A stretch of 63,960 bases of DNA, filler included, from Reclinomonas americana ATCC 50394 (lineage: Eukaryota): the NCBI GenBank assembly GCA_048213135.1. It is 15 parts of 15 records of this genome, joined end to end, with 100 filler letters (N's around TTAATTAATTAA, not from the genome) between each part and the next. Parts side by side here need not be neighbours in the genome. Positions count along the whole stretch, not along the records: positions 37,073 to 43,093 come from AFZH01022430.1; positions 43,194 to 44,298 come from AFZH01022431.1; positions 44,399 to 48,419 come from AFZH01022432.1; positions 48,520 to 60,820 come from AFZH01022433.1; positions 60,921 to 62,020 come from AFZH01022434.1; positions 62,121 to 63,960 come from AFZH01022440.1; 9 more parts are not named here. The stretch is one strand, 5' to 3'. Made by a program: the position numbers and the translations under genes. Positions 37,294 to 63,960 of this stretch are shown here, piece after piece (the stretch's first letter is position 1; each line of letters begins with the position of its first letter). A model generated the notes under the pieces. That model was not told the origin of the DNA. It did not search any database and saw only the letters and a program-made list of their open reading frames with translations.

Positions 37294-37552
37294 TTGCGCA
37301 CACACATGAGTGCATCGCATGCTTCGCCGCTGGCATTTATGGTGGAGGGCTTGGCGGCCGAGTCAGCTCCTTGTTATTTGCAGTCTGAGTCCACTTGCTC
37401 ATTGTGGACGAATAGTGAGGTCGAAGCAACGGTGATTGTGGGGGTGGATAGGCGAGTCGAACTCGTGTTTGACAGTCGCACGTCATGCGAGGCCTCGTTT
37501 GGAATGTGTGGACCTGTCATCGAATCCTGCTGGCAGTCTTCGTTTTCTTCCA
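37294..37552 (+). pseudogene. Diverged extra copy of the ubiquitin-like header exon
   Basis: THMSASHASPLAFMVEGLAAESAPCYLQSESTCSLWTNSEVEATVIVGVD aligns without gaps to VHVSAAHDSSLSVVVESMSALSTLADLLREATRLLREKSGDEGVEIVGVE. It could also be a live upstream exon. Confidence 0.55.
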
Positions 37553-37962
37553 GGTTGGTTTGTCTTCAGACATCCTTCGCTCTGTAATGCTTTCTGAGTT
37601 CGCGTACCAGGTGCGTCTTCGCGCGCATGTGTTCTTCTTTGTATGTTTGTGTGTTGCCGATTGATGGAGAGGACAAAGCTTTACGCTTGCTGAACATGAG
37701 CGCCTATTGTCTGATCTTTTGCATGCATGCTGACGTAAACCTCGCAGGCTCTTCTTCAAACGGTATCTGTGCCTGCATCGTCGTATTGCTCTTGTGGGCG
37801 GTGGGTGTTGTTCCTCGCGTCAGGCTGCGGCAGACAATAATGGGCGTGCACGTTCCTCCTATTCTGCATCTGCATCTTCCGATGTGTCCACAACTGTGGT
37901 GCGTAGACATCATCCAATGTGTTTCAGGTTTTTTTCTGACAGCATGTATTTTTCACAAACAG

Positions 37963-40900
37963 TTTCCTGTTCGCGTCAGCGCGTTGCACGATACATCGCT
38001 ATGGGTGGTGGTTGAGGGCATGTCGGCCGTGTCGACTCTCGCGGACTTGCTGCGCGAGGCCACACGCTTGCTGCGTGAGAAGAGCGGAGATGCGGAGATG
38101 GAGATTGTGGGAGTGGAGAAACCAATGGAGTTTGACATTGTGGACGGTGGCGACACTCTGCTGCGCACTTTGGAAATTAAGGCCACCACCCATTTGTTTG
38201 TGCGCGTTACCATGCCGTCTGCGACCCCTTCTCCGGCTGTGGGTGGATTCGCAAGGTGACTATTGTTGTTCTGCATGTTGCTGTGTGCACACTTGAGAGA
38301 GCGAGCTCATCTGCACTCTCTGTGTCAAGCGCTCCCGGATGGACGGAGCGGTTTGTCGTCATTCAACGTCACAACTGACTTGTCTGCATTCGTTCCAACT
38401 TGCATGATGTCTCTGCAGAATGGCCCTTTCGAATCGTATCGACGTGGCGTGGGAGGCCGTTGCTGACGCCATACGTCTGCGATGTAGACACACACTGGCA
38501 CAGTTCAGTCGCGATCATCCCGACTTTGACGTGCGGGCTTGGACTCCCGATGTATACACTCCGCCTTTGTTCTGGCATCCTTTGACGATGAAGGCGTGGT
38601 ACGATCAACATGCGCCACTCCACCCTGGTCGAGTCAAGCTATTTGCACCACAACAGCAACACTTGCTCGACTGGAAGACTGCCTTCGATGCCGATCCCGC
38701 CTCTGACCCTCCGTGTGACGCATTTGATGTGACAGCTTTGACGTCGATCCTGCTTTTTGGTGGCTTTGTGCGTGATGGCGGTTGCAAGATGATGTTGATA
38801 GACGATGCCGTTGAACGCAAGACGGTGGAACAGTTGCGAGAGGTGCGTAACACGCTAAGCCATGAATCGTCGGCGTTCAGCGGGGCCTCTGTGCAAGAAT
38901 ATCTCGGTGACCGTGGCGCGTTCCTCGCCCTTGTTGGCAAGTTGCAGCTGCCTGCCGATGCGCTCGATGGATTTGTTTCACGGATTCGCGAAGCACGCCA
39001 TCTGGACGTCAACGTCAGTACATTTGTAGTGCGACTGCATCGACTGGCTGTGCGTGAGCTCACTTTCTACCAGCACGACGAGAGTGTGCACAAGGACATA
39101 CAAACGTATGTGCCGTTACTGTGCTCACGTGAGCGTGACATCTCATCGAGAGACAAGATGACGGATCTGTTGACAGAGGTAGATGCCTTCCTCTCCGACG
39201 CCAACACCACCCATCATGCACTGGTGCTGTTTGGCAACAGTGGTGCTGGCAAGACCACCACCATGTCGGTCCTGGCTGAGCGAGCATGGCGACAGTGGCA
39301 GATTGGAGCAAGCGGACGTGTGCCTGTGCGTGTGCCTCTTGGTGCATTGCGCAATGCCGATGAGCGATTGTTGGAGGAGGCACTGGAACGATTGTCACCC
39401 GAGTTGGGATTCAGTGAGGCGGATGTGCGACGATTGAAGGAGGAACCACTGCTGTTGTTGCTTGACGGGTATGACGAGTTGTACCGTGGTGTGAACCTGT
39501 TTGTCAAGAACCAGCTGGATGTGTGTCGCGATGTGAAGGTGATTATCACCTGTCGAGGCGATTATGCACTGACTGCACTGGGTGGAGCGGCGCAGTATCG
39601 ACGGTACTTTGCGCCAGTGGATGCACGCGGACAGTTATGCATGCATCAGCTGATGGAGAGACACATTGCACCATTCAATAAGGAGCAGATTGAGGAGTAC
39701 TTTGTGAGATTGGTGCAAGCGAGCGGCGAGGACGATGACGGTGGAGTGCAGTGGTCGACTGCCCAGGAGTACATTCGTGCACTGAGGAGTGTACGCGGAC
39801 TGGATACATTGGTGTCGAATCCATTCCTGCTGTCGGTGGTGGCTCGTGTGTTGCCACAGTTGGTGGCGAGTGGCATGCAGCGACCGACTCGGCGAGATGT
39901 GTTTGACCAATTTATTCGGCAGTGGATTGATAGGGAGCAGGAGAGACAGACGCGTCTCGCAGCTGAGCGTTTGCCGAGTGAGGAGACATGTGTCTCATTC
40001 TGTGAGGGACTGGCACGGTTGATGCATGAGAGGAATGTGGTGCGTGTGTCTGTGCTGGAGAGTCGACCAAAGGATAATGGAGAGGAGGATGACTTTGGTG
40101 GTGCGCCACATGGTATTCCACGACGGGAGGAAGAACCGTTTGACAAGTTCCTCGGCCGCAAGAACCAGCATGTGCGAGTGTGCTGTCCGATCGTGCGACG
40201 GTATGGCACGACACAGTGGGGATTCGTGCATCTGTCGTTGTTGGAGCACTGCGTGGCACGGCATGTTTTCGCATGGGAGTCATGGGATGAGGAGAGGAGG
40301 TTGACGATGGAAGATGTGCAACAGCATGTGTTGGCAGTGCGACTGCTGAATGATCGACCTTCGCTGGTGGAGCAGATGGCCGAAGTGGTGCGACGGTCTC
40401 CTCGATTGCAAGCGAGACTGTGGGAGGTGATTGAGTTGTCGAGAAAGATGGATGAAGAGCGAGTGGTGACGGCAGCCGCGAATGCAGCGACGGTGTTGAG
40501 TTTGGCACAAGTGTCGTTCAGTGGGCGCGATCTGTCGGGTGTGCGAGTGCGGGGTGCGGATTTGAGGGATGCGGTGATGCACAAGACGGTGTGGCGAGGG
40601 GCGGATTTGCGTGAGGTGAATGTGTGCATGGCGTATGCGAGGGAGGCGGATTTCAGGGGGGCGGATGTGACGGGTGTGAAGTGGCCGAGGAAGCCTCTGG
40701 TCGGTCATACTGGCTTCGTGAATGCAACTGCCGTTACTCCCGACGGTCTTTGCATTGTAAGCACCAGCCATGATACAACCGTGCGTGTGTGGTCACTGGC
40801 ACATGGTGAAGAAGTACAACGGTTTGAGGGACATGTTGGGTGGGTGTGGGCTGTTGCCGTCACGCCCGATGGGCTACACATTATCAGTGGGGGTCAAGAC

Positions 40901-42169
40901 TCGTCAGTACGTGTGTGGTCACTGGCGAGTGGAAATGAGGTGCGACGGTTGGTTGGACACGTTGGAGCTGTAAATTCTGTCGCTGTCACTCCCGATGGTC
41001 TACATGTTGTAAGCGTGAGTTGGGATAAGACCTTGCGAGTGTGGTCGCTGGAGAGTGGTGAGGAGATGAAACGGCTGGAGGGGCATGAAGGTGTCGTATG
41101 GTGCGTTGCCGTTACTCCTGATGGCCAACACGCTGTGAGTGGGAGTGGAGACAAATCCATTCGGATGTGGTCTCTGGTCAGTGGAGAAGAAGTTCGACGG
41201 TACTACGGACACGCCGATAGCGTACAGTCTGTTGTCGTCACTCCTGATGGTCAGTACATCGTGAGCGGGAGTAATGACAAAACAGCGCGTATTTGGTCAC
41301 TTACAAGCGGGCAAGAAGTGCGGCAACTGGTGGGACACGCTGCCGCTGTACTCTCGGTAGTTGTAACAGTCGATGGCCATTGTGTTGTTAGTGGAAGCGA
41401 GGACATGACCGTTAGAGTATGGTCGCTAGCGAGTGGAGAAGAATTGCGACGGCTGGAGGGACACACGGGATCAGTGAATGCTGTCGCCGTCTCTCCTGAC
41501 AGTAGGCACTTTGTAAGTGGAGGCAGAGATGAAACGGTGCGAGCGTGGTCTGTCGCAAGTGGGGAAGAAGTGCGACGATTGGAGGGACATACTGCTGAGG
41601 TGACCGATGTGGCTCTTGCGTTTACTGCGTGTGGTCAGCTCCTATCTCTCGGTGAGCGCGAATATCCATCTCCACCTGACTACGTTGTTAGTGGGAGCTG
41701 GGACAACTCAGTGCGCGTGTGGTCCTTTGCGAGCGGGGAGATACTGCAACATTTGGTGGGTCACAGTGCCTCTGTACTGACTGTTACAGTCACTCACGAC
41801 GGCAAGTACATTGTGAGCGGAAGTGTTGACAAGAGTGTTCGAGTGTGGAATCTGGCGAGCGGTGCGGAAGTCCGACGGCTGGAGGGGCACACCAGCTCAG
41901 TGTTTTCTGTCACGATCACTCCTGACGGGCAGCACATCGTAAGTCAAAGTGTTGACAACATTGTGCGAATTTGGTCACTGGCGAGTGGCAATGAAGTGCA
42001 TGAGGGCACGCCGGATGCCGTTTCCTTCGCCCATCGCGCCGTCGCAGTCGCGGCAGACTTGACCATTCGAGGATTGGGCAAGTCAATTATCGTGATGCGA
42101 GAGCAGCTGCACGAGCGGATATTTGGTTCATTTATGCCAGACTTTACTGACGTCGTGTATGATGAGTAA
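37963..42169 (+). CDS. NLR-like protein 1: Ubl header - HEPN - NACHT - pentapeptide - 10x WD40 (start exon not located)
   Basis: Exons 37963-38255, 38330-38350 and 38419-42169 splice in frame. HEPN motifs FDVTALTSIL and RNTLSH (38846-38863). Walker A GNSGAGKT (39233), Walker B LLLLDGYDE, pentapeptides FSGRDLSGVRVRGADL, then GH..WS repeats from ~40696. Confidence 0.88.
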
Positions 42170-63472: not shown

Positions 63473-63516
<44 letters not shown>

Positions 63517-63765
63517 CTCTCACCCACTCACGCACTCTCACCCACTCACGCACTCTCTCTCTCTCTCTCTCACACACGCGCGCGCACACACAAATTCACA
63601 CGGAGAATGACAGCAAAGGTGGGAATGTATGCACTTTGCGTGGTTGGTGTGTGTGCGTGCATTCGTGTGCTTGTGCATCGTGTGCAGTTGTTGTTCTTTG
63701 TGTTGTTGTGCATGTCTTCGAAAGTTGATGCTGTGTGGGTGTCTCACTGCGAGTGCTTGATACAG

Positions 63766-63960
63766 ATCATTCAGAGTCTCGCAGTAGTGGGATCCGTCAC
63801 CATCACTCCCGACGGCAAGCACATTGTTGGTGGATGCATGGACAGTACCGTCCGAGTGTGGTCACTGGCGAGTGGCAAAGAGGTGCGACGGCTGGTGGGA
63901 CACACTGCGTGGTTGCAGTCTGTCGCCGTCACCCCTGATGGCCGGCACGTTGTCAGTGGC
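63766..63960 (+). CDS. WD40 repeats of the same family running off the window; no NACHT immediately upstream
   Basis: SVTITPDGKHIVGGCMDSTVRVWSLASGKEVRRLVGHTAWLQSVAVTPDGRHVVSG. Confidence 0.75.
   Translation, partial: MIQSLAVVGSVTITPDGKHIVGGCMDSTVRVWSLASGKEVRRLVGHTAWLQSVAVTPDGRHVVSG

Follow-up and report, generated by a model that had tools for sequence, protein, structure and literature searches.

Does a protist genome carry immune-type receptors that are armed with an RNase domain? This question is raised by several genes in a stretch of 63,960 bases (hereafter the window) of the Reclinomonas americana ATCC 50394 genome (GenBank assembly GCA_048213135.1), for which an initial annotation had proposed a defense island with one HEPN RNase module deployed on two NACHT-WD40 genes and a kinase gene. 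The window is not continuous but consists of 15 contigs (1.0-12.3 kb) separated by 14 identical artificial spacers, and the genes in question lie on contigs 10-15. Our analysis points to a cluster of NLR-type (STAND) receptor genes whose predicted products are composed of a leader, a divergent HEPN-like module, a NACHT domain, pentapeptide repeats, and WD40 repeats; we assign this reading, in which the HEPN fold, RNase activity, and defense role are inferred, a probability of about 0.6.

Two paralogous NACHT-pentapeptide-WD40 genes

Two long open reading frames (ORFs) on the plus strand, located at 38408-42169 (gene 1) and 54711-58991 (gene 2), encode NACHT, pentapeptide repeat, and WD40 regions. 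In Pfam searches, the NACHT profile (PF05729) reached 33.9 bits (cut-off 26.7) and the pentapeptide profile (PF00805) 31.2 bits, and WD40 profiles were matched too. The Walker A (GNSGAGKT; 39233-39256 in gene 1 and 55620-55643 in gene 2) and Walker B (LLLDGYDE; 39455-39478 in gene 1) motifs are intact in both genes and invariant across five aligned relatives. With a profile match above the cut-off and both Walker motifs intact, the two proteins are assigned to the NACHT NTPases of the STAND class.

The two genes share 70.8% protein identity over about 1,200 residues and 74% DNA identity, and they are whole-gene paralogues, upstream exon included. A 209-bp upstream block (37959-38167 in comparison with 54332-54540) is 81% identical and holds an ATG-initiated ORF, the leader, which is conserved between the genes at 49 of 79 amino acids; in both genes, exactly 236 nt separate the ATG from a GT donor, and the phase is the same. 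An acceptor is located one base ahead of the codon that aligns with the supposed start of gene 1, a codon that is GTG in gene 2, and the intervening introns (163 and 183 nt) show no conservation. Because of the conserved leader ORF, the matching donors and phase, the good acceptor, and the unconserved intron, a two-exon structure with a 79-residue leader before the module is predicted for both genes. In gene 1, exon 1 (38020-38255, 236 nt, MSAVSTLADLL..., donor caag/gtgact) would be joined to a main exon at 38419-42169 that contains the HEPN-like module, the NACHT domain, the pentapeptide repeats, 10 WD40 repeats, and a conserved tail, whereas in gene 2, exon 1 (54393-54628, 236 nt, donor gaag/gtgcat) would be joined to a main exon at 54812-58991 that contains the same domains and 15 WD40 repeats. 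Both genes finish in the tail GSF[ML]PDFTD. The leader has no match in Pfam and no further copy in the window. Two earlier proposals are revised by this structure: the module is not the extreme N-terminus of these proteins, as a conserved upstream exon comes first, and its presence on both sensors does not reflect independent redeployment, as the gene was duplicated whole with its leader exon.

The divergence between the two genes is mosaic. Synonymous divergence (dS) is 1.17 in the HEPN-like module, 0.53 in the NACHT region, and 0.34 in the pentapeptide region (38420-40700 in comparison with 54813-57080), suggesting that the core was homogenized by gene conversion or that members of the family exchanged heads. 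The nearest relatives of the core (NACHT-pentapeptide-WD40) are a Mortierellomycete fungal protein (P0003; 30% identity, E 8e-49) and two other proteins. Since the core relatives are missing from a search with the module that covered the same length range, their N-termini differ; swapped heads of this kind are usual in NLR proteins. Two contigs assigned to a metagenome-assembled genome of a Mortierella endosymbiont (L001, 3001-6639; L004, 3001-6441) also encode NACHT-pentapeptide-WD40 proteins, which are 30% identical to residues 246-1198 of gene 1. These proteins much resemble P0003, and their presence in an endosymbiont assembly could be due to host contamination or gene transfer.

Two further features of the receptor genes were observed. 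Their main exons are free of introns over 3.7-4.2 kb, whereas the adjacent kinase gene has at least five short introns. Directly past the stop codon of gene 1 lies a long low-complexity tract with triplet periodicity (42170-43090), with EAREAR/KRGKRG runs on the plus strand and LSCLSC on the minus strand, which is probably a non-coding satellite.

Hypervariable positions in the WD40 repeats

The 15 WD40 repeats of gene 2, the last of which is truncated, include an array of 14 full 42-residue repeats (57081-58844, plus strand) with a mean nucleotide identity of 82.6%. Differences among them are concentrated at particular positions: codons 4, 5, 7, 23, 25, and 42 account for 419 of the 944 nonsynonymous but 21 of the 582 synonymous pairwise differences, and the most variable pairs, 5/7 and 23/25, flank an invariant V6 and a near-invariant D24. 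In Podospora HET-E and other NWD proteins, codons 7/9 and 25/27 flank the conserved positions 8 and 26, lie on the interaction face of the propeller, and are under diversifying selection, as described in parts of PMC1805685. At a numbering offset of two residues, the gene 2 pattern, as judged by pairwise difference counts, appears to agree with these same four surface positions. The repeats of gene 1 (62.5% nucleotide identity) are older. Variable WD40 sensing, as suggested in the initial annotation, is thus well supported by the position-specific hypervariability of the gene 2 array. The orphan WD40 pieces and local duplications reported nearby were likewise recovered: the duplications are real, a single isolated repeat of the same type is present at 62349-62450 (plus strand), and a further array of this type starts at about 63790 and runs off the window (63790-63960, plus strand), so that it may belong to a gene extending past the window end.

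These properties of the sensor are equally compatible with a role in allorecognition as with defense. The genes might be determinants of allorecognition or of another self/non-self compatibility, similar to fungal het-d/het-e, instead of acting against pathogens. Both the NACHT-WD40 core with its hypervariable positions, which match HET-E/NWD, and the fungal origin of its closest relative would agree with such a role; the effector differs, however, being HET in Podospora and HEPN-like here, and we regard this explanation as possible though somewhat unlikely.

A shared N-proximal module with similarity to HEPN domains

Following the leader, the N-proximal region of about 215 residues is 59% identical between gene 1 and gene 2, and the module itself comprises about 190-195 residues (about 195 in gene 1, 38420-39004, plus strand). 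Both receptor copies carry A..C...LA...R..P.FD.R.W, then ADP...C..FD.T....ILL (FDVT at 38723-38734 in gene 1), and then RNxxxH, represented by RNTLSH in gene 1 (38846-38863) and RNKLRH in gene 2 (55233-55250, plus strand). With RNLVAH in the kinase gene, RN-x3-H is present in all three full copies, in line with the proposed conservation of RxxxxH among paralogues. The ratio of nonsynonymous to synonymous divergence (dN/dS) between the paralogues is 0.29 in the module and 0.16 in the NACHT region; the module is under purifying selection and evolves faster than the NACHT region.

A partial copy of the module was detected on the minus strand at 51443-51622, consisting of 60 codons without a stop that correspond to residues 13-72 of the gene 2 module (75% identity; tblastn 5e-26; hidden Markov model (HMM) 9.6e-23) and ending short of the RNxxxH region. 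When the rest of this copy was sought in 48520-54700, the known 60 codons alone were found. Because its dN/dS against gene 2 is 0.21, it is probably the truncated remnant of a third paralogue that once worked. The fourth partial copy announced earlier therefore exists, whereas the P-loop NTPase gene said to contain it is unsupported.

At the sequence level, the module represents an orphan family. No homologue was found at E<=1e-3 among 1.84 billion representative proteins, no match in a word-indexed collection of proteins of 689-2193 residues, and no hit at E<=10 among PDB chains; none of 41 pattern matches in viral contigs and none of 202 in metagenome contigs proved to be a relative.

Several lines of evidence connect the module with HEPN domains. 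According to sections of PMC3710099, the HEPN signature Rx4-6H closes helix 3, and the residue following R is usually N, D, or H; all three full copies show this signature with N after R. In Pfam, the only match of copy 1 (that of gene 1) at E<=10 is HEPN_Swt1 (PF18731; E=0.0057, 17.4 bits), and it covers residues 131-169, the motif region. For profile comparison, a reference alignment of Swt1-type HEPN segments was prepared from one bacterial phylum, in which 38 of 401 genomes contained PF18731 above its cut-off; the 38 segments were cut out and six mis-framed or truncated rows dropped, leaving 32. Using hhalign, the alignment of the three copies matched this reference with a score of 31.9 (P 2.3e-4, 75 columns, HHsuite probability 44%, and 44-56% overall), pairing FD.TaL..iL with WD...LL.vM, ER..V..L with ER.LV.EL, and RNxxxH with RNxWAH, as well as FS after the motif. 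In 100 column shuffles the score averaged 12.5 (sd 2.5) and peaked at 19.4, so that none came up to 31.9; reversal of the alignment gave 13.7, and two unrelated controls gave 10.0 and 13.5. Compared singly, copy 1 scored 32.0 and copy 2 (that of gene 2) 24.7, values that none of 60 shuffles equalled in either case (max 22.9 for copy 2). By this measure, the resemblance of the module to the profile of an established HEPN family is significant. In the alignment, the aspartate of [FW]D.T, which is shared by the three copies, stands opposite the conserved aspartate of the WD pair of Swt1-type HEPN domains; it is a candidate for the acidic residue that HEPN domains conserve in helix 2 near the motif. 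In the ESM Atlas, the neighbors of copy 1 include eukaryotic clusters in which some members carry DUF4559 or HEPN_DZIP3 (the latter in 11-38%) and one bacterial cluster with HEPN_Swt1 in 20% of its members; the recognition value of 2175 is under the guide value of 2300, and these neighbors serve as a lead only. Taken together, the module of the receptor genes is probably a divergent HEPN domain, nearest to the Swt1 type.

A number of results weigh against reading these genes as a cluster of HEPN-armed defense receptors. Copy 1 falls short of the PF18731 cut-off (27.5 bits), and every other HEPN model of Pfam likewise stays below its curated threshold; copy 2 is without a HEPN match in Pfam at E<=10, and the ORF piece with kinase exon 3 has none at E<=0.01. 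Scans of three module pieces against NCBIfam and PADLOC returned no HEPN and nothing relevant. The kinase copy alone scores 15.3 against the HEPN reference, which is equalled by 6 of 60 shuffles, and the HMM of the receptor copies gives it 10.3 bits, the best of 2000 shuffles reaching 8.9. The profile support spans about 75 columns with a query of two to three sequences. HEPN domains are up-down bundles of four helices with metal-independent RNase activity, but an AlphaFold2 model of the module, built from a two-sequence alignment, is unusable (mean predicted local distance difference test (pLDDT) score 38.8, 0 residues >=70); in this model DSSP assigns alpha structure throughout, including a helix from 129 to H148, at a confidence too low for evidence. 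Beyond the module, WD40 hypervariability of the HET-E type serves allorecognition in fungi, so defense is not the sole reading, and the order of the contigs is taken as joined at the junctions 10/11, 12/13, 13/14, and 14/15.

It is also possible to view the module as a lineage-specific helical adaptor or oligomerization domain without RNase activity, whose RNxxxH motif and likeness to Swt1 would stem from inactive HEPN ancestry or from convergence, and whose proteins would signal via partners. The failure of HEPN models to pass their cut-offs and the lack of homologues among the 1.84 billion representatives would be in line with this view, and the eukaryotic Swt1 HEPN is itself described as probably inactive in a passage of PMC3710099. 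However, none of the three full copies has lost the R, N, or H, not even that of the kinase gene, which is 26% identical to copy 2 in the best local match of 104 residues; hhalign also pairs an acidic residue of helix 2 and the ER motif; and the reference alignment represents the bacterial type, in which RNxWAH is retained. We therefore consider such an adaptor unlikely and favor a divergent HEPN domain. The HEPN reading of the initial annotation accordingly receives moderate support from the sequence profiles and the motif, while the kinase copy is not recognizably HEPN when taken alone. As for the two families it had named for comparison, similarity was found to the Swt1 type, with hhalign significant and Pfam below the cut-off, and not to the DZIP3 type (PF18738), whose Pfam profile matched neither receptor copy at E<=10.

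A protein kinase gene with a probably related N-terminal region

On the plus strand between the two receptor genes, a kinase gene contains the three motif blocks of the module in the same order as in the receptor copies, distributed over exons 1-3. Exon 1 (44030-44160, contig 11), which is followed by an intron containing a spacer, holds the first helix block MTKALQRECHHRLAALRRMSPEFDPREW; exon 2 (44591-44765, contig 12) holds the ADP..C..WDST....VL block ADPDGHRCSTWDSTMCCAVL, with WDST at 44691-44702; and exon 3 (44825-45156) holds RNLVAH (44858-44875) and downstream helices. The catalytic domain extends over several exons (45568-46730) with GRGGFG, VAIK, HRDVKPAN, DLG, and APE motifs. Four ORF pieces within 45696-46730 match Pfam Pkinase or PK_Tyr_Ser-Thr, with Pkinase reaching 38.0 bits (cut-off 31.7) on one exon piece. 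By its profile and catalytic motifs the product is a eukaryotic protein kinase, and it is apparently active.

Pairwise similarity between the kinase copy and the receptor copies is low (blastp about 2e-4, 27 bits, 26% identity over 104 residues of copy 2). In hhalign, the kinase copy matches the receptor copies with a score of 28.6 over residues 8-89 (shuffle mean 13.4, max 23.1). An alternative alignment with MAFFT misaligned the kinase exon fragments and was not used. The N-terminal region of the kinase could be unrelated to the module and its motifs due to chance, in which case the locus would consist of two duplicated NLR genes and an ordinary kinase gene. The low pairwise score would fit this explanation, as would the shuffle-level score of the kinase copy alone against HEPN, the confinement of the significant hhalign stretch to the first half of the module, and the behavior of exon 3, which alone has no match in Pfam, NCBIfam, or PADLOC and no usable one in the ESM Atlas. 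On the other hand, the score of 28.6 was not reached in 150 shuffles, the real sequence ranked first of 2001 against the HMM of the receptor copies, and the three blocks are collinear, with RNLVAH at the expected spacing. Chance resemblance is thus improbable in our view, and the kinase copy is quite likely homologous to the NLR module. The claim that a common domain is present on all three genes is therefore borne out for the two NLR genes (59% identity), and the kinase copy is related weakly though above chance; the kinase copy counts as HEPN only because of its homology to the NLR copies. The kinase gene would also be the sole redeployment of the module in the cluster.

Downstream of the kinase domain, an ORF at 46734-47159 contains a charged coiled-coil-like stretch and a hydrophobic end, GALASGAFAAVAVGAAMCTVL, followed by the stop codon; were this ORF joined to the kinase by splicing, the product could be a tail-anchored membrane protein.

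Contig order and the remaining part of the window

The six contigs that hold the cluster occupy 37073-43093, 43194-44298, 44399-48419, 48520-60820, 60921-62020, and 62121-63960. Each spacer of the window consists of 100 bases, N44-TTAATTAATTAA-N44, in which TTAATTAATTAA provides a stop in all six frames (14 sites between 5654 and 62120). Five spacers lie within the cluster (43094-43193, 44299-44398, 48420-48519, 60821-60920, and 62021-62120), and the cluster is accordingly not the uninterrupted 27 kb first described. Intron 1 of the kinase gene contains the spacer at 44299-44398: position 44160 on contig 11 is the last base of exon 1 (donor GCGAG/gtatgt), exon 2 opens at 44591 on contig 12 behind the acceptor tgcag/, and the phases match. 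Since the kinase gene is predicted to be spliced in phase over this spacer, contigs 11 and 12 appear to be truly ordered and oriented. The adjacency of contigs, which had been named as a weak point, is thus supported at 11/12, and the four other junctions within the cluster stand as joined. Many spacers are bordered by CT/GA/CA microsatellites, and several have an identical simple repeat at either side; because of these like repeats at both edges and the unsorted sizes of the contigs, the spacers look like short-read scaffold gaps. That unlinked contigs were joined and the genes are not neighbors, as the 14 artificial spacers with five in the cluster might suggest, is quite improbable given the in-frame splicing of the kinase gene across the 11/12 spacer with correct order and orientation, the unsorted contig sizes, the same simple repeats edging both sides of several spacers, and a single 12.3-kb contig that carries both gene 2 and the relic copy.

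The Crinkler-like NTPase described next to the receptor genes was not corroborated. Seven minus-strand ORF pieces of contig 13 were compared with a library in which the CR NTPase domain may not be represented, and none matches a family of P-loop NTPases or Crinklers at E<=5; a search of longer proteins gave no homologue of the putative NTPase; the P-loop assignment was based on one Walker-A-like ATRGCGKS behind a hydrophobic strand. The exon at 51690-52070 (minus strand), which contains this Walker-A-like motif together with RDVSRH and LLFGG, was considered as a further copy of the module and rejected (hhalign 9.3, reached by 59 of 60 shuffles).

Nor could the ordinary housekeeping genes attributed to the left part of the window be confirmed. 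Of 199 ORF pieces passed through a low-complexity filter, 150 of 151 were kept, and none of these 150 (>=85 residues) in the left 37 kb has a Pfam match at E<=1e-5, a threshold that short exons may escape. A 734-residue open frame at 30293-32494 (plus strand) is also without a Pfam match at E<=1e-5. The proteins of this genome look poorly covered by Pfam. In addition, dispersed repeats of 78-81% identity and no coding signal were observed, one pair between contigs 13 and 14 (52849-53133 and 61731-62014) and one within contig 13 (52509-52755 and 53368-53631).

Relationship to known systems and possible function

N-terminal HEPN domains on NACHT receptors, clustered and expanded, are already known in bivalves, cnidarians, and bacteria. 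The DZIP3/hRUL138-like HEPN-NACHT proteins (PF18738) of bivalves, cnidarians, amphioxus, and Capsaspora comprise more than 50 genes in the pearl oyster, clustered with stand-alone HEPN genes and in some cases with tetratricopeptide repeat (TPR) or WD40 tails (parts of PMC9646362), and 17-83 genes per anthozoan (parts of PMC8260672); NACHT fusions of HEPN, and a lineage-specific expansion in Capsaspora, are described in the HEPN survey (parts of PMC3710099). These proteins resemble the R. americana ones in having an N-terminal RN-x3-H HEPN on a NACHT domain and C-terminal repeats (there leucine-rich repeats, TPR, or WD40). They differ in that the ESM Atlas neighbors are the sole link to PF18738 here and the best profile is of the Swt1 type; short GT-AG introns, the 79-residue leader exon before the module, and a lack of animal-like relatives further distinguish the genes studied here. 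For the Swt1/Ava_2192 type (PF18731), the same survey describes, in the relevant sections, active bacterial members fused to an ATPase and transferred to Naegleria, dictyostelids, and Daphnia (PMC3710099). As in our genes, this type has alignable WD..LL, ER..V.EL, and RNxWAH blocks and a position N-terminal to an NTPase. Its partners in the bacterial loci, however, are long ATPase ORFs of about 1100 residues (the label Ava_2192/DUF499 is taken from the description in parts of PMC3710099 and not derived from the loci), whereas the partner here is NACHT-WD40, and the score of the module is 17.4 compared with 27.5 bits. HEPN is also listed in parts of two sources among the enzymatic effectors fused to bacterial NACHT/STAND proteins (bioRxiv 10.1101/2022.07.19.500537 and PMC3710099); our genes share the HEPN-on-NACHT/STAND arrangement and differ in being eukaryotic and intron-bearing, with no bacterial match of the module at E<=1e-3.

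Podospora HET-E/HET-D and the fungal NWD/HNWD proteins, in the portions of the literature consulted, share the NACHT-WD40 core, highly similar repeats of 42 residues, and two hypervariable residue pairs at the propeller top with gene 2, but their N-terminal effector is HET or another domain, and pentapeptide repeats lie between NACHT and WD40 in R. americana. The term HEPN has 0 occurrences in the main text of a survey of fungal NLR proteins (PMC4986451). RNase L and Ire1, in which the KEN HEPN follows the kinase or pseudokinase (sections of PMC3710099), resemble the kinase gene in combining a protein kinase and a HEPN-type module in one polypeptide; the module is N-terminal to the kinase here, and the kinase copy is a putative HEPN only. 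The KEN family has no Pfam match at E<=0.01 on ORF pieces of the kinase gene, and among the papers that a literature search for N-terminal HEPN-protein kinase fusions listed, on KEN and on Las1-Grc3, none has such an order. What would be new in R. americana are the orphan module family, its pairing with fungal-style hypervariable WD40 repeats, the conserved leader exon, and possibly a HEPN-first kinase fusion.

From what is established for STAND/NLR proteins and for HEPN RNases, a likely mechanism may be proposed, for which we infer the HEPN fold, RNase activity, activation by dimerization, the defense role, and the link between the kinase and the NLR proteins. The top surface of the WD40 propeller would bind a non-self or altered-self ligand, which would lift autoinhibition and allow oligomerization driven by the NACHT domain. 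The oligomers would pair the N-proximal HEPN-like modules, the paired RNxxxH motifs might then build an RNase site, and RNA cleavage could lead to growth arrest or death. In the case of the kinase gene, dimerization via the kinase domain would activate the module, as in RNase L/Ire1 but with the order reversed. A bolder and rather doubtful extension is that this orphan HEPN family gives the lineage a portable warhead with RNase activity, which is fitted to hypervariable NACHT-WD40 receptors and also to the N-terminus of an active kinase, the latter amounting to an inverted RNase L of KEN-independent origin; the difference in dS between module and NACHT region (1.17 compared with 0.53) would then reflect exchange of the module among members of the family.

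The practical value of these findings is modest at present. If the kinase-linked copy is real, it would represent a second, independent way to place a HEPN RNase under the control of a kinase. Should the module prove to be an active HEPN RNase, NLR proteins armed with HEPN would not be confined to animals and bacteria but would occur in a further lineage of eukaryotes, and the combination of a HEPN-like head with a fungal-style WD40 sensor, if true, would support repeated mix-and-match of NLR effectors and sensors across eukaryotes.

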